Positions 4,534 through 47,195 of a stretch of 64,000 bases of DNA are shown here, one piece after another. This DNA is from Dictyostelium discoideum (lineage: Eukaryota): the NCBI GenBank assembly GCA_000004695.1, contig CM000154.2, positions 4,832,001 through 4,896,000 on the forward strand, given 5' to 3'. The notes under the pieces were generated by a model, which was not told the DNA's origin, ran no database searches, and saw only the letters and a list, made by a program, of their open reading frames with translations. A program made the translations under genes and the position numbers. Each line of letters opens with the position of its first letter. The stretch's first letter is position 1.

Positions 4534-5652
4534 TTATTTGTTTTCTTTTTCTTTTTCTTTTTCAGCTTCTTTTTCTTTTTCAGCTTCTTCTTTTTCAATT
4601 TGTGATTTTACTTCTTGTAATTTTTTATCAATTGATTCAATTTCTAAATCTAATAAATGTTTTGTATTTTCTAAATCTTCATTTGTAGTTGACTCATTTT
4701 CAAAATATTTTTTATATTCATCTTGTTCTAATTTTTTCATTTTCTTTGAATATTCTTCACCAGAAAGTATGTAAGAGAATTCATCAGCATTTAATAATTC
4801 ACCAGATTTTTCAAAAAAGAATAATGAACCATTCTCTAATAGAATATAAGGTGATCCGTTTTCAGAGAATTTCGATGACTGAATATCTGAAATTGGGATT
4901 TTTAAAACTTGCATCCCTGGATTAATATGACATAATTTTATAAATTTCGAATTTGGTTCTCTATAAATTCTAATACCAAAAACACTTATCATCTTTTGAC
5001 CAATTAATTGGAATGATAATGCCCAAAATGAAAATACTGATAAAAATAAAACAGTTTTCATCTTTTTTGTATTTAAAAAAATTAAAAATTAGAAAATAAA
5101 TAAAAATATATATAATTATGTATATATATATATATGCACACATACATCTAAATGATTAATATAAGCAATGATTGGTGAGGAAATACCAAGTAATGATTGA
5201 GCAGTTAAAAATAATTTACCAGCATTAAATAGATTTTCTTTATTTGATTGGTAAATTAAGTAATCTGGATTTTGATCTTCAATAGTTTCATTAGTTTTAT
5301 ATTTTTCTAAATCTAAACCAAATGGTTTCTTTTTTTTTGGTTTTTCATTTTCAAATGGGTCTGTATAAATTTCTTCTTTTTCTTCTTTTTCTACTTTTTC
5401 TAATTTTTCTACTTTTTTTTCAACATCAATATCTTTTTTATTATTATTATTATTATCATTTAATATTGTTGAAAATGATCTAAAAAAAGTTTTATTAAAA
5501 TCTTTAATTTCTTTAAATGATGATAATGATGATGATTGATTCTTTAAAATTGATTTATTTGTATTTAAAAATAATCTTTGATTACTTCTATTACAATTTA
5601 CAATTGATTTAATTAATGTTGAATTTAAATTTAATTTATTAAATTTATTCAT
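4534..5652 (-). CDS. Hypothetical protein with presequence-like N-terminus and one TM segment; proposed exons 5652-5149 and 5061-4534
   Basis: ORFs 5116-5652 and 4534-5061 lie on the same strand only 55 bp apart, too short for a Dictyostelium promoter. An in-frame GAT|GTATGT donor at 5149/5148 and an AAAAAAG|ATG acceptor at 5062 would splice out 87 nt and join them in phase 0. The N-terminus is basic and hydroxylated, like a mitochondrial presequence. MKTVLFLSVFSFWALSFQ would then be an internal TM rather than a signal peptide. The C-terminus is K/E-rich and coiled-coil-like. The alternative is two separate genes. Confidence 0.5.
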
Positions 5653-11220: not shown

Positions 11221-12590
11221 ATAAATAAAAAATGAATTTTTTAATAATATTAATTAATATTATAATAGTTTTAACAACAATTATTTTCTTAAAAAATAAT
11301 AAAAAAAAAAAATAAATATATACCTGGTCCTATTGGGTTACCAATTTTAGGAAATTTATTATCATTAAAAGGTTAATCTCATTTCAAGAATTTTATAAAC
11401 AATATGGACCAATTTATAGAATTAGAATGGGTTCTATAGAAACTATAGTTTTAACAGAATCCTCTACTTTAAAGGAGGCATTTATTGGAAATTCTTATAT
11501 TTTTGAAAATAGATTTCAAAAAGAAAGAAATAATTGTGAGAATGTGTTATTGGCAAATGGAGAATTGTTTAAAATTATTCAAAGAATTAGATAACCTTGC
11601 TGAAATTGGTGAACCAATAATTTTAAATAGATATAAAATTGATTTCATCGAATGTCATGCTAACTTTTACATATGGTGATAAATTATTATATAAATATAA
11701 TGAAATTGAAACTTTTGAAGAATATTTAAAAAATTTATCAAATTATTTAAAAGTTACAGGTCGACCAATTTTATCAGATTTTATTCCATTTTTAAAACCA
11801 TTTTCAAAAAATGTGAATATTGATGATTGTAATGATTTTTTTTACATCCAATTCAAATAAATATATTGAGAAATTTAAATCTGGAAAAAATTCAAAACAA
11901 TCTAAAACAGAAAATAAACCAATAATTTCAAAACTATTATCATTATATGAAAATGGTGAAATATCATGGGCATCTGTTATTGGATCTTGCATTGATATGC
12001 AAGCTTCTAGTACTGATACAATTATGTTTTGTTTAATAGAATTAACAAATTTAAAAAATATTCAAAATAAAGTTTACAATGAAATAAAACAAGAAATTAA
12101 AAAACAAAATATTAATAATAATAACAATGAAGATGAAGTTTTAATCCAGTATAATAAATATCGTAATTCCCTACCATACTTTTCAATGGTAATAAAAGAA
12201 ACATTTAGAAAACATCCAGTAACAGCTCATGAAACTTCAAATGATGTTGAATTTAGAGGTTATAAAATTTCAAAAGGTACCCAAATCATTAAAAATATTT
12301 GGGCAACTCATAGAAATGAAAAAATATTTCAATCACCAAACTCATTTATTCCTGAAAGATTCTTGGAAGAATTACCAAATTCTAATTTAGTTCATTTTGG
12401 AGTTGGTGTAAGAGATTGTATGGGTAAATCATTAGCTGAATCACAAATATTTACAATATTGGCAAGTTTTATTAACAGATATGAATTTTTAAATCCTAAT
12501 CCATCAATACCATTAAATGATGTTGGTAAATTTGGTCTTGCCTTTTCTTGTCCTCAAAATAAAATAATTATTAAAAAGAGAATTTAATAA
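11221..12590 (+). pseudogene. Cytochrome P450 pseudogene, full-length but frame-disrupted
   Basis: P450 landmarks are present in order: N-terminal anchor MNFLIILINIIIVLTTIIF, PGPIGLPILGNLLSL, KQYGPIYRIRMGSIETIVLTE, ANGELFKIIQR, I-helix ASSTDTIMFCLIEL, ExxR (ETFRKHP), PERF (IPERF), and the heme loop FGVGVRDCMGKSLAE. They are spread over at least four reading frames (ORF-track pieces at 11485, 11639, 11820 plus two untracked pieces) with in-frame stops. The junctions are too tight for introns. Confidence 0.7.
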
Positions 12591-12884
12591 CACACACACA
12601 CCACAACAAACTTTATCAAAATTTAAATAAAAAAAACAGAATAAATAAATTTTAAGGTAATCACAATTAGTGATTGAAATTAATATTTTATTAATTAATT
12701 TTTCATTAAACTCATATGAAATAATGTAAACAATTAAGTTCAGTATTTAAAAAAGAGAGAAATAAATTTTTTAATAAATTATTATTGATTATTATTGATT
12801 ATTATTATTGATTATTATTGATTATTATTATTGTCTATTTTTGATTATAATTATTATTATTATTATTATTTAAAAATATTTTAT

Positions 12885-37038: not shown

Positions 37039-38810
37039 TTACAATTTAAGTTGTGATTGAACTGATTCGATAGTTGGAGCATCAGAGACATCACCAACAA
37101 CAACGAGGGTTGGTTTTTTGGAGGTCATTTTCTTGGCAACTCTTTTAATATCTTCAGAGGTAACTTTAGAGATTTCTTCAGCAAATTCAGCTGGAGTTAA
37201 AACTTTGTCGGTATAGATAGCTTGTTTACCAATGAATTCGAGGGCAGAGGTTCTGCTTTCAGCTTGTTCTAAAACGCTTGATTTAGTGACAGCTTTAGCA
37301 CGTTCTAATTCTTGACCAGCAGTCTTTGAGGCAGCAACGATTTCAGAGGTAATTAATGAAACAGTCTTACCAACGGTAGCACCTTCAACTTCAGCAACAA
37401 CACCGAATAAACCAGAATCACCATAAGTTAAATTGAATGCTTCAGAATTAACAATATTTGAATTACTTTTAATAAAAAAAAAATAAAAAAAATAAAAGTT
37501 AAAATTATATTTCTAAATCAATTTAATAATTAATAATAATAATAATACAAACTTTTTAGTTAAACTGAATAATCTTGAGGTTCTACCATGACCTGGTGCA
37601 GTCTTTGGACAACCATTACCTAAGATTGATTGTAAAACTGAAAAGGCAGCAACATCTTTAATGTTTGATTGAGCAGTACCTTCAAAAGCAAGAACAACTT
37701 TAGAGTTACCACTTGAATATTTAAGTGATTCACCACCAATATATTGAGCAGTTTCCTAAAATAAACAATATCATCATATTATTATTTTATTCTATTTTAT
37801 TATATATGATCATTATTATTATTATTATTATTAAAAAAAACTTACATTTGAAATTGAAGTTGATGATTCATCATTACCAAAAGTAACTTTTTCAGCTTCT
37901 TCAATTAATTCATTATGTGAAAGACCAACACCAACCAAGATCATATTTGATGGTTTGTAAGTTGAATTTACCCAATTGGTGACGGCATCTTTGGTGATGT
38001 TACCTAAATTGCAAATTGGTGCAACTAATGGACGACCAAGGGTTTTACCACGAAAAGCAGTTTGATGAACAGATTCAAAGATTGAAGAGTATGAATCGTG
38101 ATTGTAGGCTTCAGATTCTTTAACGATGATTTCGGTGACATCACGAACCTCGTGGTATGGAAGGGTTGGTTTGGTGATGTTTGCTAAATTATTCAACATT
38201 TGAAGTGAACGGTTTGGTAAGGTTTGAAGTGCAATCAATAAATTGTCACGTGATGCTTGAGCGAATGCAGTTGAACCAGAGACTTCAATGTCTCTTTGTA
38301 CTTCAATTCCTAATTTGTTGGTGTTTGATTCAAATGCTAATCCCTTAAGAACTTGATTTAAACCTGCAGTCTCTTGTGTTTCATTTCTGCTACCTGTCTT
38401 TATGTAAAGACCTAATGATACTGCTGGTCCTGTATATCCACCAACTAAACTAACTACTTTTAATCCATTTGAAAGTGTTGTTGATTCAACAATTCTTTTA
38501 CTTTCTTGAAATATTGATGTAGTGTACTATTTATATAAATAATATAAAATTAATATTAATATTAATATTTATTTATATAAATATATAAAGTGAAAAAAAA
38601 ATAAAATAAAATGAAAAAAAAAAAAAATCGTTGTGTGTTGTGTGTGTTTTTTTTTTTTTTTTTTTCATAGCGTTTTTTATTTTATTATTTTTTTTTATTT
38701 TTTTATTTTTTTTATTTTTTATTATTATTGTTCTTTTTCCAAAATTGATTTTTTTATTTTTTATTTTTTTATTTTAATTATGATAGATCATACATTTCTA
38801 GCAATGAATC
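37039..38810 (-). CDS. Cytochrome bc1 complex core protein 2-like (inactive M16 peptidase family); exons 38810-38784, 38526-37846, 37755-37553, 37465-37039
   Basis: A 27-nt first exon MIGRFIARN (donor AAT|GTATGA) joins via acceptor AAATAG|TAC at 38527 to ...TTLSNGLKVVSLVGGYTGPAVSLGLYIKTGSRNETQETAGLNQVLKGLAFES..., which has the M16 N-domain fold but no HxxEH. Donor AAT|GTAAGT (37845) and acceptor TTATTTTAG|G (37756) give ...VVLAFEGTAQSNIKDVAAFSVLQSILGNG.... A last intron (37552-37466) gives ...SEAFNLTYGDSGLFGVVAEV...KKPTLVVVGDVSDAPTIE. The whole product is co-linear with UQCRC2/QCR2. The last donor is the non-consensus AA|GTTTGT. Confidence 0.75.
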
Positions 38811-40337: not shown

Positions 40338-43094
40338 TTATTTGTATTTATTTGTATTTGAAACAATTTTTATAATATTTCTATCAACTTTATCTTGAAT
40401 AAAATCTTTATATCTATTAAATTGATTAATTTTGTTACAAAGTGTTGTATAATTTTTTTGAGATATTGTTAAATTGAATTTTGATTTAATATCTTGATCA
40501 ATTGTATCATTATTTTCAAAATCATCTAATAATAATTTTACAACCAATAGAGGATAGCTTCTTTCAATGATATTTTTTAAACTGAAAAAATAATTCTCCA
40601 TTGGTTTATAATCCATTTGAATATTTTGAGATTTTAATTTCAAATATAAAAAAACTGCAGTTTTATGATCTAAATCTTGGAATCTAACTGGTTGAATGAA
40701 TTCCAACTCATTTTTAAAATCAACATTATTTATCAAATAAAATGTTAAATAATTTGATTTCCATAAGTCAATATAGGAATAATTGTAAATAAATTTAGCT
40801 TTTAATTTTAATGAGAAATATTTAACCATATATTTTATAGTTGTAATATCTATACAATCTGATAATAAATCATCATTAATATCACCAATCCCATTATCAA
40901 AAAGGTATTGTAAAAATTGAATATCACCACTACCACTACCACTACCACCACCATTACCATTATCACCTTTATTATTATTATGATTATTATAACAAATATC
41001 TCTAACTACTGATTTACTAATATCATCTGAATCCCAAGTAAATAATGATTTATGATTTTCAAAATAATATTTAAATAATTTTTTATTATTTAATAAACAA
41101 TGTGCTGAAAATCTCCTTTGATTCGAGTTGATTATGTTGGCTAATCGATTAGCATGTTTTTTAATTTTAAATTGTGTATTTTTTGGATTTATAATATGGC
41201 TTATTAACATTGGATTTGTGAAATTTGTATTTGTAATTGCAATTTTCAAAAACTCTAATTGAGTTTTAATATCAACTCTATCATGATTAAATAAAGGTTG
41301 ACCATCGATTTTGATTTTATGATCTTTATTCATTTTCAATAATTCACAATCTCCATAGTAACATGCTACTCTTACTAAATTATCACCACCTGATGAACAA
41401 GATGGTGGATAAGTTTTTATTAAATCGTATTCCTTATACTCTGAAATGAATTGATAAATCAATGATTCTAAATCATAATTATAAAATCCTTTTTCACTCT
41501 TTGCAAACCAATCAAAATAAAATACTCTTTTAATTTCTCTAACTAATTCAAAATCTTCATAATCAATTTCAGTAAATTCCGTTTCGTCAAAATAAATATA
41601 CTCTTCATTTTCATCTTCTTCTTCATTTTCAACATTATTATTTTTAATAGTATTATTATTATTATTATTAAAAAATGAATAAATATATGATACTGCATCG
41701 TAAATTAAATAAACAATTTTATCATTAGCTGTTGGTGGTGGTGGTGGAGGTGGTGGAGGTGGTGGTGTTGTTGGTGTTGTTGGTGTTGGTTTTATAATAG
41801 CTAAATTATAAATTGAATTTACTTTTTTAGTTGTTTGATTTTCTTTTAAAATATCAGTTTTTTTTAAAATATGTTTGAATGGGGTTTGAATATTTCTATT
41901 TTCATTATATTCTATTAAATGTTCAACTTTTTTAAAAAGTAATGAAGAGATTTGTTTTTCTTTTTTACTAGTTCTATGTGACACTGATAAAACTAGTAAT
42001 GCTGTTAAAATATAATCAATTTGATATTTTTCAAGCACAGATTTTGTTTTGTGGCTTTTGTCAATACAACGACCGTAATTGAAATCTAAATAACTAGCGA
42101 TAGTGCTATAGTTAGCACAACCACTGCCATAATGGTCAAGATAGTTATCAAGTAAATTGTAACTTAGGAAAATATTATTTAAAACTGAAAATGAATTATA
42201 ACCATTGAATTGCAATAATGGAATGTTATAATCATTATATAAACGTTTAAATAATTGGTGATCTAATCTCATCAAATTTTCAAAATATATTTCAAAACTA
42301 CCAGTAAATGAAATTGGTGGTACGAATCCAATTTCATCCAATAGAAATCTAATTAATTCACATCTCTTATTTGAACATAACGCATTATAAAATGCTTTCA
42401 TTGGATCTTTTACCATAATTCCAAGTTCATAATAAATGAATTTAATAATTTTTAAATCACATTTACCTAATGATTTATCAAATAAATCATCATTATTAAT
42501 TCTAAGTTCTTCTATTGTTGTTGTTGTTGTTGTTGTTGTTGTTTTTGTTGTTGCTGAAGTTGAAGTTGAAGAGGAAGTTGAAGAAGAGGAAGTTGATGAT
42601 GGATTGACGGTACCATAATTTTCAAATATAAATTTTAATAAATCTAAATTAGAAGTATCTAATGAAGTTTTAATTAATTCTTGTGTAAGTTTATTTGTAC
42701 TTAATAAAATTGATTTATTTGTATTTAATAATTGATTTAAAATTATTGACGATTCTTCTTTATTTAATGATAGATTATAATGATTATAATAATTATTATT
42801 AAAAAAATAAATAAATGATGTAATAGATTTTGAATCAATTTGATCAAATTTTTCATTTCTTTTAATTTTATATAATAATAATTCTCTTGCATGCTTTAAA
42901 CACCATTCAAAACCTGCTTGATCATATTTTTTAATTTTAAAACAATCTTCTGAATATGATCTACCACCATAAGAAATTTGTTCATTAAATTTATAAACAT
43001 AATCATATATATAATTTGATAAATATTTATTATTAAATACTGATTTATATAAACTATAAATATCTTTATTTTTATTTTTATTTAAATTATTCAT
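40338..43094 (-). CDS. Large hypothetical protein (918 aa, single exon) with a TPTTPTTPPPPPPPPPPPTA linker and a Ser/Thr tract
   Basis: One uninterrupted ORF. Codon usage matches the neighbours. Outside two short tracts it is not low-complexity. I did not recognise any catalytic motif; the C-terminal third is possibly degenerate ankyrin or helical-repeat sequence. Confidence 0.7.
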   Translation of the reverse strand: MNNLNKNKNKDIYSLYKSVFNNKYLSNYIYDYVYKFNEQISYGGRSYSEDCFKIKKYDQAGFEWCLKHARELLLYKIKRNEKFDQIDSKSITSFIYFFNNNYYNHYNLSLNKEESSIILNQLLNTNKSILLSTNKLTQELIKTSLDTSNLDLLKFIFENYGTVNPSSTSSSSTSSSTSTSATTKTTTTTTTTTIEELRINNDDLFDKSLGKCDLKIIKFIYYELGIMVKDPMKAFYNALCSNKRCELIRFLLDEIGFVPPISFTGSFEIYFENLMRLDHQLFKRLYNDYNIPLLQFNGYNSFSVLNNIFLSYNLLDNYLDHYGSGCANYSTIASYLDFNYGRCIDKSHKTKSVLEKYQIDYILTALLVLSVSHRTSKKEKQISSLLFKKVEHLIEYNENRNIQTPFKHILKKTDILKENQTTKKVNSIYNLAIIKPTPTTPTTPPPPPPPPPPPTANDKIVYLIYDAVSYIYSFFNNNNNNTIKNNNVENEEEDENEEYIYFDETEFTEIDYEDFELVREIKRVFYFDWFAKSEKGFYNYDLESLIYQFISEYKEYDLIKTYPPSCSSGGDNLVRVACYYGDCELLKMNKDHKIKIDGQPLFNHDRVDIKTQLEFLKIAITNTNFTNPMLISHIINPKNTQFKIKKHANRLANIINSNQRRFSAHCLLNNKKLFKYYFENHKSLFTWDSDDISKSVVRDICYNNHNNNKGDNGNGGGSGSGSGDIQFLQYLFDNGIGDINDDLLSDCIDITTIKYMVKYFSLKLKAKFIYNYSYIDLWKSNYLTFYLINNVDFKNELEFIQPVRFQDLDHKTAVFLYLKLKSQNIQMDYKPMENYFFSLKNIIERSYPLLVVKLLLDDFENNDTIDQDIKSKFNLTISQKNYTTLCNKINQFNRYKDFIQDKVDRNIIKIVSNTNKYK

Positions 43095-43337
43095 TTTATT
43101 TTAATTTTTGTTTTTGTTTATCACTGAATTTTTTTTTTTTTTTTTTTTCACACACTTTATCACCATCAAAAAAAAAAAAAAAAAAATAAAGAAAAAAAAA
43201 TAAAAAGATATTTTTTTTTTTTATTTTTTATCAGAAAACATTTGGTGACAAAAATCTAGATATCCAAAATTACCTGAAAAACCACCTTTAAATGTTTATG
43301 TGTTATAAATAAAAAATATAAAAAAAAAACAACAAAA

Positions 43338-43375
<38 letters not shown>

Positions 43376-43485
43376 CAATTATAAAACAACAATATTTTTA
43401 TTTTATTAATTCTGTTACATTCTTTTTTTTTTTAATGATAAATAATTTTTTTTAATTTTTGTTATTATTGTTGTTGTTTATTTTT

Positions 43486-43815
43486 TTATACTTTTACATT
43501 TGCACCAGTTGTAGTTTTAGCATTAATATTGGTAAGACCAGGTGCACTAAGAGTGGTATTGGTGTTTGCTTTAACACTTGTATTTGCGAGGACTGAAATT
43601 TCATTTGTACCAAATTCACCAACATTCAATGATGAATTGAAAATTTGGTTTGATCCTGATGATTTGATTGAACCGAATTTGGAGATTGAGTCTAAAAAAA
43701 GAAATAATTAAAAAAAAAGGAAAAAATAAAAATAATTAAAACTTGTTTTTTTTTTTTAAATATGAGTTAATTAATTTAAATAATAATAATAATAAAAATT
43801 ACTAATTAATGTCAT
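43486..43815 (-). CDS. HssA/B-like (hssA/2C/7E family-like) small protein, 72 aa; exons 43815-43803 and 43691-43486
   Basis: This gene is not in the ORF track. A 13-nt first exon ATGACATTAATTA is followed by donor GTAATT, a 111-nt AT-rich intron, and acceptor TTTTTTTAG|AC. The product is MTLINSISKFGSIKSSGSNQIFNSSLNVGEFGTNEISVLANTSVKANTNTTLSAPGLTNINAKTTTGANVKV. The MT(L/I)..SIS start and the short G/S/N/T-rich body resemble the Dictyostelium HssA/B-like family. The listed plus-strand ORF 43529-43711 is the antisense of this exon; it uses the rare codons GCG and AGG and starts at TTG. Confidence 0.5.
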
Positions 43816-44259
43816 TTTATTAATTTTTTTTTTTTTAATTTTTTAATAATTATTGTTTTGATTGGATATTTAAAAAATAGAATTTATTTAAATCCTTTTA
43901 TACTTTTTTTTTTTTTTGGACTCAAAAAATTTTTTTTTAAAAATTTATATCTTTAATTATTTAAATTAATTAAAATTAAACACTGGGTTTAATTACTATA
44001 TTTATAAATTGTCAAGTGTGTGTTGGTGTGGGTTGTGTTAATAAAAAAAAAAAAGATAAATTACCAATTATAAGAAAAATCTCACACATTTTTTTTTTTA
44101 ATTTACCAAAGTAAATTAATATATCATTATTTTGAAATTATTATAAATAATATTTACAATAAAAAATAAGAAATATTTATCAAAGTTTCTAAACAGTTGA
44201 GTCACTTTGTTCTATTTTTGTTACTTTTTTTTTTTTTTACTACCAAATAATTTTAAATT

Positions 44260-44516: not shown

Positions 44517-44520
<4 letters not shown>

Positions 44521-44608
<88 letters not shown>
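44521..44608. repeat. (AAT)n microsatellite, about 29 units, intergenic
   Basis: Perfect run at 44521-44608. Confidence 0.95.
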
Positions 44609-44609
<1 letters not shown>

Positions 44610-44762
44610 TTAATATTAATATTATTATTTTATTTATTTATTTATTTATTTTATATATATTTGTTTTTTTTTGATAAAATAATTTCTTTTATTTTTTTTA
44701 TTATTTTATTAATTTTTTATATTTGTTATGATAATTTTTATTTTTTATTTTATAAAAAATAA

Positions 44763-45758
44763 TTATAATAATTTTGTTAAGAGATTGACAGAGTCGGTAA
44801 ACTTATCACTAAAGGTAACTTTTGAAATTGAGTTTTTAACGGATGTACTGATTGAGCCTGATGGTCTATAATCTTTATAGGTCATTAAAATTGTACCTAA
44901 ACCACAAATACATCTCATTATTAAATCTGGATCAGATTCTGTTGAAATTACTAATGACATACATTCAACATACTTATTAACAATCTCTGTATTTATTTGA
45001 TTATATTGAGAATAAACTGAAATACTAATAAAATTTTGAAAATATATATATTTTTTAAAAAAAAAAAAAAAAAAAAAAAGTTAATATGCATGTAAAATTA
45101 ATTGAAAAAAAATGAAATATAAAATGGAAAAAAACTTACTTTAATAAAAATGTTGATAAAGCAGTTGAATAAGATTTGTTTGAATTTGGTGAAAGTTTTT
45201 GATAGATTGATTTAATTGATTCTAAAATTTGTGGATTTGAGAATAATCTTTGAGTTAATAAAGTACGAAGTGGTTCATGACGGAACATATTTGAAAAGAT
45301 TTTCAAAGCCAACATTTGATTATTCATAACGGTGGATTCTTGTACAATTTTAAAGAGAATAACCAATAGATTATATCTTGATGAAGCTCTATTCTCGATG
45401 ACCATAGATTCAAAGGTCTTTGAAGCACCAGGATGTAGAACCATAACACGAATAACATCAAGGATCGTATAAACTTTATCAGCTGGCCAAGTTAACATTT
45501 TGAAAATAACTTTATATTGATTATCACTAAACGATGAGGAATGATAACGTGATGTCTCTCTGAGTGTTGCTAAAATTCCCTTAAACAATGAAATCTCTTG
45601 TTCATCTTCATCCAATGAAATTGATTTTGTATTTGCATTTGATGAAAGTTGATCATTAAATTCTAATGCTTTAACTAATAATGATTCACTATTTGCTTGT
45701 TCAAATAATGTATAAGTTGCTTGTGGAATTAATGATGTTGGTTTAATATTAAAATCTC

Positions 45759-45816
<58 letters not shown>

Positions 45817-47195
45817 GTTATTGTTATTATTATTATTATTATTATTTGAACTATCTGGAATATATCTACTTGGAACTGTAAATGAATCACTTGGTGAACT
45901 ATAGTTATTATTATTATTATTGTTATTTGAACTACCTGGAATATATCTACTTGAACCAGTTAATGGGTCACCTTGATTTGGAGTTGCTTCAAAAGTCATT
46001 GTATCTTGACCAGAATTTTTAATTATGAATTGAGCGACTTGATCAAGGAATTCTTGACCTAAATCATTTTTTAAGATAAAATCTTGAGCGACAGTGTAAG
46101 GATTTTCAGTGAGATCGTAACCAATTTTGTACATTACACCATCACCAACATCAACATCGAAAATATAATCATACTCTCTACCATTGAGTACACCTTTTGA
46201 ACTATTTCTACTGGCAGCATTAGCATCTACAACCTCACCGATTTTAATCCATTTAGCTTCAGATGCACTCCATTGATGAGCTTCAGCGATTTTACCATTC
46301 TTTACAACCTTTAATTCACCATCTTTAGTGCCATCGGCAATCAATGCTTCATTGACGTCTTGTAATTCATTCATTTTAATATCACCAACATTATCAGACA
46401 TAATAGTTTGAGCTGCTAAATTATCTTGATATTGTTGTACCTCCTCTTGAGTTGCAAATCTTTTTTCATTTCTAGTCCAAACATAACCAACACCATCTGC
46501 ACAGCCAGTGATAATATCGCCATTGGGTGAGTATGATAAATCCCAAACTCCAGATGGATGAGTCAAGGTTTGAACATTCTCACCGTCTCTCCAAATACGT
46601 AAAGTTCTATCCTCACCAACTGAAGCAAACCCAAAGTTTGGAATATTGATAACGGCATAAACAAATGAACTATGACCTGACAACTCTTGAACCAATTCAC
46701 CATCGATTGTCCAAATGAAAACGGTACCATCATTACTACAACTTGCAAACCCTAAATCTGGAATAACTGCCAATCCTCTAACACAATCCTTATGTTTTTT
46801 CAATGTCTTTATCACTGAATAATTTCCTTTACCATTTTGTTCCCAAATCTTTATAGTTTTATCTGCACTTGCTGATACTATATTTCCATTTTGTAATCCA
46901 ATAACTGACCAAATTGATGCTTCATGTCCTGATAATGTTGTTAAACATTCACCATTTTCCCAAACTTTAATTGTTCTAAAATAAAAATAAATATATTAAT
47001 ATTAATATTTTATAAATATATAGAATTTAAAATAATAATAATAAAACTTACTTATCCCAACTACCAGAGATAATCAAACCATCATTTGTTACACCAAGTG
47101 TTGAAACTGAATCATTATGTCCTAATAACATTAATGATGGTGCACCACCTTCATTACCTTTTTTACTACTATTATTATTATTATTGTTATTATTG

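Follow-up and report, generated by a model that had tools for sequence, protein, structure and literature searches.

Our analysis showed that positions 43486-43815 of a 64-kb stretch of Dictyostelium discoideum DNA, hereafter the window, contain on the minus strand a two-exon gene whose model is confirmed and stands well above chance. The gene is DDB_G0291001. Taken as a whole, it is in our view likely to be a spliced coding gene, a divergent, cysteine-free derivative of the hssA/2C/7E family that has kept the 5' module of that family; with low confidence, we suggest that it may encode a GBF-regulated accessory protein. Its parts are:

43803-43815, minus strand: coding part of exon 1, 13 nt (ATGACATTAATTA), giving MTLI and the first base of codon 5 on in-silico splicing

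43692-43802, minus strand: phase-1 intron of 111 nt, GTAATT...TTTTTTTAG, G+C 8%

43486-43691, minus strand: exon 2, 206 nt including the TAA stop codon (43486-43488), coding for residues 5-72

In-silico splicing of the minus strand yields a coding sequence of 219 nt and a protein of 72 aa, MTLINSISKFGSIKSSGSNQIFNSSLNVGEFGTNEISVLANTSVKANTNTTLSAPGLTNINAKTTTGANVKV, which is residue for residue that of DDB_G0291001 on chromosome 5 of D. discoideum AX4 (XP_635446.1 / EAL61931.1 / UniProt Q54F91). The earlier note had proposed this two-exon minus-strand model (13-nt exon, GTAATT donor, 111-nt intron, 72 aa) from the letters of the DNA, and each coordinate was reproduced. It had also described the product as rich in G, S, N and T, and these four residues indeed make up 53% of it. 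The pattern of exon 1 plus donor, ATGACNNTNNTNNGTAA, has a single match in the 64 kb, where 0.04 would be expected by chance. No in-frame ATG is present in exon 2 and, without splicing, the frame of exon 1 ends after 14 codons (frame-1 translation read by eye), so that an open frame needs the 43803/43691 splice; the only other AG in the intron leads to a stop as well (intron sequence read by eye). The G+C content is 32% in the exons, 8% in the intron and 12-15% in the flanks, with a window average of about 22%. With a codon model derived from 18 long ORFs in the window, the 72-codon minus-strand frame has a log-likelihood of +34 bits, the best of the six frames, and the score is negative for the four frames other than this coding sequence and a plus-strand ORF considered below. 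The exons include the codons GGT, TTC, ATC, AAC and ACC, which are preferred in D. discoideum. Scans for Rfam families, tRNAs and tandem repeats between 42.9 and 44.8 kb revealed no RNA gene and nothing in the exons; the tandem-repeat scan of this interval found simple AT repeats in the flanks only.

The mechanical list of open reading frames has one entry at this place:

43529-43711, plus strand: mechanical ORF of 60 aa with a TTG start, antisense shadow of exon 2

It is scarcely credible that this ORF represents the true gene and that the model on the minus strand is an artefact. The mechanical six-frame scan lists no other ORF of 60 aa or more here, and the codon score of the ORF is mildly positive (+12 to +15 bits), but a score of about +12 bits is what is expected opposite a coding region, and it stays below the +34 bits of the minus strand. 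The ORF has no ATG and begins at TTG, a start that is not expected in eukaryotic genes; it reaches into the AT-rich intron that interrupts the gene on the minus strand, and public annotation sits on the opposite, minus strand. It also uses GCG and AGG, which occur at 0.54 and 1.2 per 1000 codons, respectively, in the genes of the window. The TTG start and both rare codons had been pointed out beforehand, together with the idea that the ORF mirrors a real minus-strand exon; all three are present and codon usage favours the minus strand. The start, the rare codons and the lower score together identify the ORF as the antisense shadow of exon 2.

The claim that the gene is unlisted is true only of the mechanical ORF list, since the exact product is already public for AX4 (RefSeq/UniProt), where it is labelled 'uncharacterized' (UniProt) or 'hypothetical' (NCBI), not HssA/B-like. 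The gene is thus already known, and its family assignment was very probably recorded as well, as the most divergent entry of a census published in 2008 (see below). The significance of the locus is accordingly small and mostly a matter of annotation hygiene: a six-frame ORF list misrepresents small Dictyostelium genes with 13-nt first exons, and here lists only the antisense shadow. Another D. discoideum assembly, the newer, laboratory-type GCA_054883475.1, matches the window with 100% identity across a 1668-bp interval, yet has no gene called here; the corresponding site is:

5280-5609 of the GCA_054883475.1 locus, equal to window positions 43815-43486: site of DDB_G0291001, DNA identity 100%

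This assembly is a case of automated pipelines dropping small genes that have 13-nt first exons. A literature search for DDB_G0291001 and Q54F91 returned no mention and no expression or peptide evidence, and the gene was not found in the supplements of the RNA-seq and proteome papers examined. Two peptides of the product, ANTNTTLSAPGLTNINAK and SSGSNQIFNSSLNVGEFGTNEISVLANTSVK, are candidate targets for mass spectrometry.

The gene structure is that of the hssA/2C/7E family. Vicente et al. (2008) described 96 D. discoideum genes for SigN-like proteins of less than 120 aa, with a first-exon ORF of 13 nt in 89 of the 96 and introns of 66-128 nt in their table. Kin et al. (2018; PMC6198379) give nearly 100 hssA/7E/2C genes of ~213 bp, with a first exon of 13 bp and a second of about 200 bp. 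For comparison we assembled a sample of ten database proteins, namely HssA/B-like 49, 50, 52 and 62, HssB, three more proteins from D. discoideum or D. cf. discoideum, and single proteins from D. firmibasis and Cavenderia fasciculata. The first retrieval query was a provisional HssA-like sequence, which led to five real members; later queries were the member alignment, the window protein, a second provisional full-length sequence and 128 synthetic N-terminal peptides. The second provisional sequence (89 aa) is absent from the protein collection and was not used as evidence; provisional and synthetic sequences served as retrieval devices only, and our conclusions rest on the ten real database proteins. 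Six members rescanned against PF05710 scored 57-77 bits, and the invariant columns of the ten-member sample include M1, T2, I7, C37, C41 and C67. In loci of D. firmibasis and D. discoideum, the first exon of all seven hssA-type genes examined is 13 nt long and is followed by a GTAA donor and an intron of 71-95 nt; the first exons read directly are ATGACACTCTTTT, ATGACACTTTTTT and similar.

DDB_G0291001 resembles these genes in several ways. At 72 aa its product is below the 120-aa limit of Vicente et al. (2008) and within the 43-118 aa spanned by the family. The architecture of 13 nt, a phase-1 intron of 111 nt and 206 nt is also that of the family, which shares with it a 13-nt exon ORF starting with ATGAC, a short AT-rich phase-1 intron and an exon 2 of about 200 nt, and the intron length falls inside the family range of 66-128 nt. 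The protein begins with MTLINSIS, to be compared with MTLFSSIS, MTILSAIT and MTILAAIS in members; this agrees with the N-terminal family motif, written MT[IL][LF]x[SA]I[ST]SI or MT[IL][ILF]xxI[ST], and with the MTLxxSIS block. Residues 1-17 align without a gap to the Cavenderia fasciculata member. A second block, FGSxxSxGSNxI, may be shared too: hhalign matched FGSIKSSGSNQI (residues 10-21) to the family block FGSGTSMGSNSI at 67% identity and an E-value of 0.0054, with a probability of only 6.7%. In the best pairwise and profile alignments this block is shifted by ~14 residues towards the N-terminus relative to D. discoideum members such as hssl49, so that a gap has to be assumed at this point, and the invariant A-C that follows it in the family (S-F-G-S-x-x-S-M-G-S-N-S-[IV]-A-C) is F-N in DDB_G0291001. 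Both the protein and the family are Ser-rich with few charged residues, and both have a G-box-type promoter element, putative in the case of DDB_G0291001.

Several of these observations bear on whether the resemblance is one of descent. Residues 1-25 reach a local BLOSUM62 score of 46 with the N-termini of the family, a value that is equalled by 25 of 3000 shuffles (p 0.008) and by 2 of 4000 25-mers taken from real proteins of the window (empirical p ~5e-4). The earlier note regarded a likeness confined to the first six residues as telling against the family; judging by the alignments and the 25-mer controls, the similarity reaches about residue 21. The only Pfam family matched by the native 72-aa protein is PF05710, named 'Coiled' (14.6 bits, E 0.062). 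It is quite improbable, in our estimation, that DDB_G0291001 is an unrelated small gene which shares the 13-nt exon and the MTLxxSIS start by coincidence or convergence. Such a view can draw on the sub-threshold Pfam match, of a strength that amounts to noise for this composition, on the low hhalign probability, on curated databases not calling the gene HssA/B-like and on the existence of D. discoideum small-protein groups without hssA similarity (PMC3640940). It would have to explain why an exon-1 pattern as specific as 0.04 expected per 64 kb is found here with an intron whose phase and position match those of 7/7 family genes examined, why the first 21 residues hold two co-linear family blocks at an empirical p of ~5e-4 against 25-mers of the same genome, and why the sole Pfam match is to the very family that the gene structure had already led us to expect.

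The homology census of Vicente et al. also appears to include the gene, if it is sigN180. The last row of their Additional file 1 gives sigN180 as DDB0189205, on chromosome 5, with exons 13//205, an intron of 110 and 72 aa; it has 12% identity to SigN1 (Vicente et al., 2008). Exon-2 lengths in the census are uniformly one base short (sigN1, for instance, is entered as 13//256 for 89 aa), and applying the same one-base offset to the introns turns the sigN180 row into 13/206/111 nt and 72 aa, which is exactly DDB_G0291001. The census lists only three family members on chromosome 5, of 91, 75 and 72 aa, with sigN179 among them; it also has low-identity genes on chromosome 4 (sigN173, 176, 178 and 181), which are candidate intermediates between DDB_G0291001 and the core family. 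DDB_G0291001 is thus very probably sigN180, with DDB0189205 equated to it from the numbers in the row rather than from a database cross-reference.

Beyond the N-terminus the kinship fades. The gathering threshold of PF05710 is 21.4 bits, and DDB_G0291001 falls short of it with 14.6 bits, compared to 57-77 for members. Members have an ACGGC-type motif and a C-terminal CxC or CCGI, whereas DDB_G0291001 is Cys-free; likewise, the C-terminal half of members is Gly-rich or hydrophobic, whereas the tail of DDB_G0291001 is rich in Thr, Asn, Ser and Ala. The absence of the Cys-rich tail, already remarked upon in the earlier note, is in fact complete: the product has no cysteine at all, not even the invariant ones, while each of the ten members examined has at least four (4-8 in six of them, and at least six in the other four by inspection). 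We considered exon 2 as a frame-shifted family exon and rejected this, since neither of its other two sense frames is Gly/Cys-rich and both are riddled with stops. No match to PF05710 was obtained with truncations of the 72-aa protein, with full shuffles or with its reversed sequence. When residues 1-22 were left intact and the rest was shuffled, one of seven constructs still matched (12.1 bits), and none of four did when the N-terminus was shuffled and the tail left as it was; these controls place the Pfam signal in the N-terminal module (residues 1-22) alone. The tail of 50 residues shows no specific likeness to the family. Shuffles also matched unrelated Pfam families (NusA KH, E 0.0016; NADH_dehy_S2_C, E 0.014; YqfI, E 0.044), so that Pfam E-values of about 0.01-0.1 are uninformative for S/T/N-rich compositions. 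Our own HMM of the ten members gave DDB_G0291001 only 5.8 bits, which is not significant and was equalled by 125 of 5000 shuffles.

Homology searches identified no relative. A word-index search with the 72-aa protein and a phmmer search of 1.84 billion representative proteins (E <= 0.001) each returned the protein itself only, none of the 600 pattern matches in a metagenome scan was confirmed as a relative, and a search of the 64-kb window for paralogues (tblastn and the exon-1 pattern) found none. DDB_G0291001 is solitary, and not part of a tandem cluster within the window. The label HssA/B-like, which the earlier note had attached to the gene with some hesitation, therefore holds in part. 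It is supported by the architecture, by some 21 N-terminal residues, by PF05710 as the sole Pfam family and by the matching sigN180 row, but it does not hold as ordinary membership, given a Cys-free product, a Pfam score below the cut-off, a signal that is N-terminal only and databases that do not use the name.

DDB_G0291001 is the middle one of three minus-strand genes arranged head to tail. Upstream of it, beyond an AT-rich spacer of ~950 bp, is a gene at 44763-46401, and 390 bp beyond DDB_G0291001 lies DDB_G0290999, to whose product (D. discoideum AX4 chromosome 5) that of the 918-aa minus-strand ORF at 40338-43094 is identical. The upstream spacer contains a (TAA)35 microsatellite (44518-44621), and an (ATAA)17 repeat (43305-43372) lies between DDB_G0291001 and DDB_G0290999; simple repeats of the (TAA)n and (ATAA)n type are typical of Dictyostelium intergenic DNA. 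The upstream ORF (45136-46401, minus strand) ends inside a GTAAGT donor (GT at 45139-45138), followed by an intron of ~110 nt and a terminal exon with its stop at 44763, and the newer assembly has a single 865-aa product without a Pfam domain for this gene (44763-46401). Around DDB_G0291001 itself we noted three candidate signals:

43897-43902, minus strand: TATAAA, putative TATA box, 87 nt upstream of the ATG

44017-44033, no strand assigned: paired G-box/CA-rich element, putative GBF site, TGTGTGTTGGTGTGGGT on the plus strand, ~200-220 nt upstream of the ATG

43477-43482, minus strand: AATAAA, putative polyadenylation signal, beginning 6 nt downstream of the first stop-codon base

The element at 44017-44033 contains a pair of half-sites of the form (T/G)G(T/G)G(T/G)G(T/G). 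A consensus for GBF, and its occurrence in sigN promoters, have been described (PMC2257962). Expression of the family is developmentally regulated, post-aggregative and for the most part prestalk or cup. Paired sites of this type occur only twice in the 64 kb, the second being a paired GBF-type G-box at 38632-38647 on the plus strand (TGTGTGTTGTGTGTGT). A non-coding CA-rich element at 12588-12613 (plus strand, TAACACACACACACCACAACAAACTT), located directly after the stop of the ORF at 11823-12587, resembles the element upstream of DDB_G0291001.

The main rival to our reading takes DDB_G0291001 for the relic, decaying or without function, of a duplicated hssA-family gene; it may or may not be transcribed, and its ORF would have been kept only by chance or because the duplication is recent. 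We consider this unlikely. The loss of all invariant cysteines, the end of family similarity at about residue 21, the singleton status with no homologue detected and the gene not being found in the literature or supplements examined all agree with a relic, and selection on single family members may be weak. What speaks against it is the state of the gene. Its 72-codon frame is intact although a random AT-rich frame would meet a stop about every 11 codons (an estimate from base composition), its donor and acceptor are both intact, and its exons stand out with 32% G+C from surroundings of 8-15%. In codon usage it outscores the five other frames, and it includes the preferred codons named above, and the TATA-like, G-box and AATAAA signals lie at the expected positions.

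We therefore continue to favour a coding gene that is a divergent Cys-free derivative of the hssA/2C/7E (sigN, PF05710) family. DDB_G0291001 would have descended from one of the ~100 small developmental genes of this family and would have kept the 5' module, consisting of the ATGACN-type 13-nt exon, the short AT-rich phase-1 intron and the N-terminal MTLINSIS followed by KFGSIKSSGSNQI. The remainder would have changed so far as to be unrecognisable, with the Cys-free Thr/Asn/Ser/Ala tail taking the place of the cysteine motifs and of the Gly-rich or hydrophobic half. The paired G-box of GBF type ~200 bp upstream is a candidate for switching the gene on after aggregation, although we propose this with low confidence, and with equally low confidence we suggest that the product may be a redundant, non-essential accessory protein of multicellular development. 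Among the better studied relatives, antibodies against SigN group 2 proteins disaggregate mounds, whereas deletion of all 13 sigN genes of groups 1 and 2 produced no phenotype (Vicente et al., 2008), and neither did six further family knockouts (PMC8554618). A disulphide 'knot' has been proposed for SigN proteins; the lack of cysteines makes such a knot impossible for DDB_G0291001. With both the cysteines and the hydrophobic C-terminus missing, any activity shared with the family would be confined to the conserved N-terminal module.

This last point leads to a variant of the same scheme, which we regard as improbable: a 'module swap', in which the hssA-type 5' module, here with the promoter G-box counted in, was kept under selection and the Cys/Gly-rich body was exchanged for an unrelated, Cys-free polar tail. 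If this were true, the functional unit in this family of ~100 genes would be the N-terminal/5' module and not the Cys-rich body, and the module might be a targeting or interaction peptide, or might act at the RNA level. An RNA-level role would fit the finding that hssA suppresses the STATa defect even if it is frame-shifted, which has been taken to suggest an RNA-level effect (summarised in PMC6198379). A Cys-free natural variant such as DDB_G0291001 is in any event mildly useful for deciding which part of the family proteins is functional.

The preferred reading of DDB_G0291001 as a divergent family derivative can be set beside two other kinds of small Dictyostelium protein. SRCP1 (serine-rich chaperone protein 1, 88 aa) suppresses polyglutamine aggregation, has been reported as one of the same large class of small proteins under developmental regulation (PMC8554618) and is reported to act via a C-terminal 'pseudo-amyloid' region. 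SRCP1 and DDB_G0291001 are both small, Ser-rich and without recognisable domains, but the pseudo-amyloid region is expected to be hydrophobic whereas the tail of DDB_G0291001 is polar, a comparison made by description and not by sequence; a pseudo-amyloid mechanism is unlikely for DDB_G0291001. The D. discoideum small-protein groups without hssA similarity include prestalk proteins of 57-59 aa and prespore proteins of 69-72 aa, e.g. DDB_G0285863 (PMC3640940). These are small developmental proteins of similar size for which no function is known, and which we set beside DDB_G0291001 by description only, and any kinship to them would be remote, judging by the blank phmmer search (E <= 0.001).

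The predicted product of DDB_G0291001 is a basic protein of 7.4 kDa (pI ~9.8, no Cys). Its maximal Kyte-Doolittle hydropathy over 15 residues is 0.59, and it has no hydrophobic stretch that could serve as a signal peptide or membrane segment. AlphaFold2 run on the single sequence gave a mean pLDDT of 47 and no secondary structure. The model is consistent with a disordered product, the low pLDDT being weak evidence for disorder because it was obtained without an alignment.

A further observation concerns D. firmibasis (GCA_036169595.1), where positions 5077-5392 of the locus examined (minus strand) encode an 80-aa product, MAILESFYSLS...PHCGCN, with a 13-nt first exon and a 73-nt intron. This product has the C-terminal CGCN typical of the family and no recorded Pfam hit, and it is encoded ~4 kb from two PF05710 genes. 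It looks like a further divergent hssA-type gene that was missed by profile annotation.
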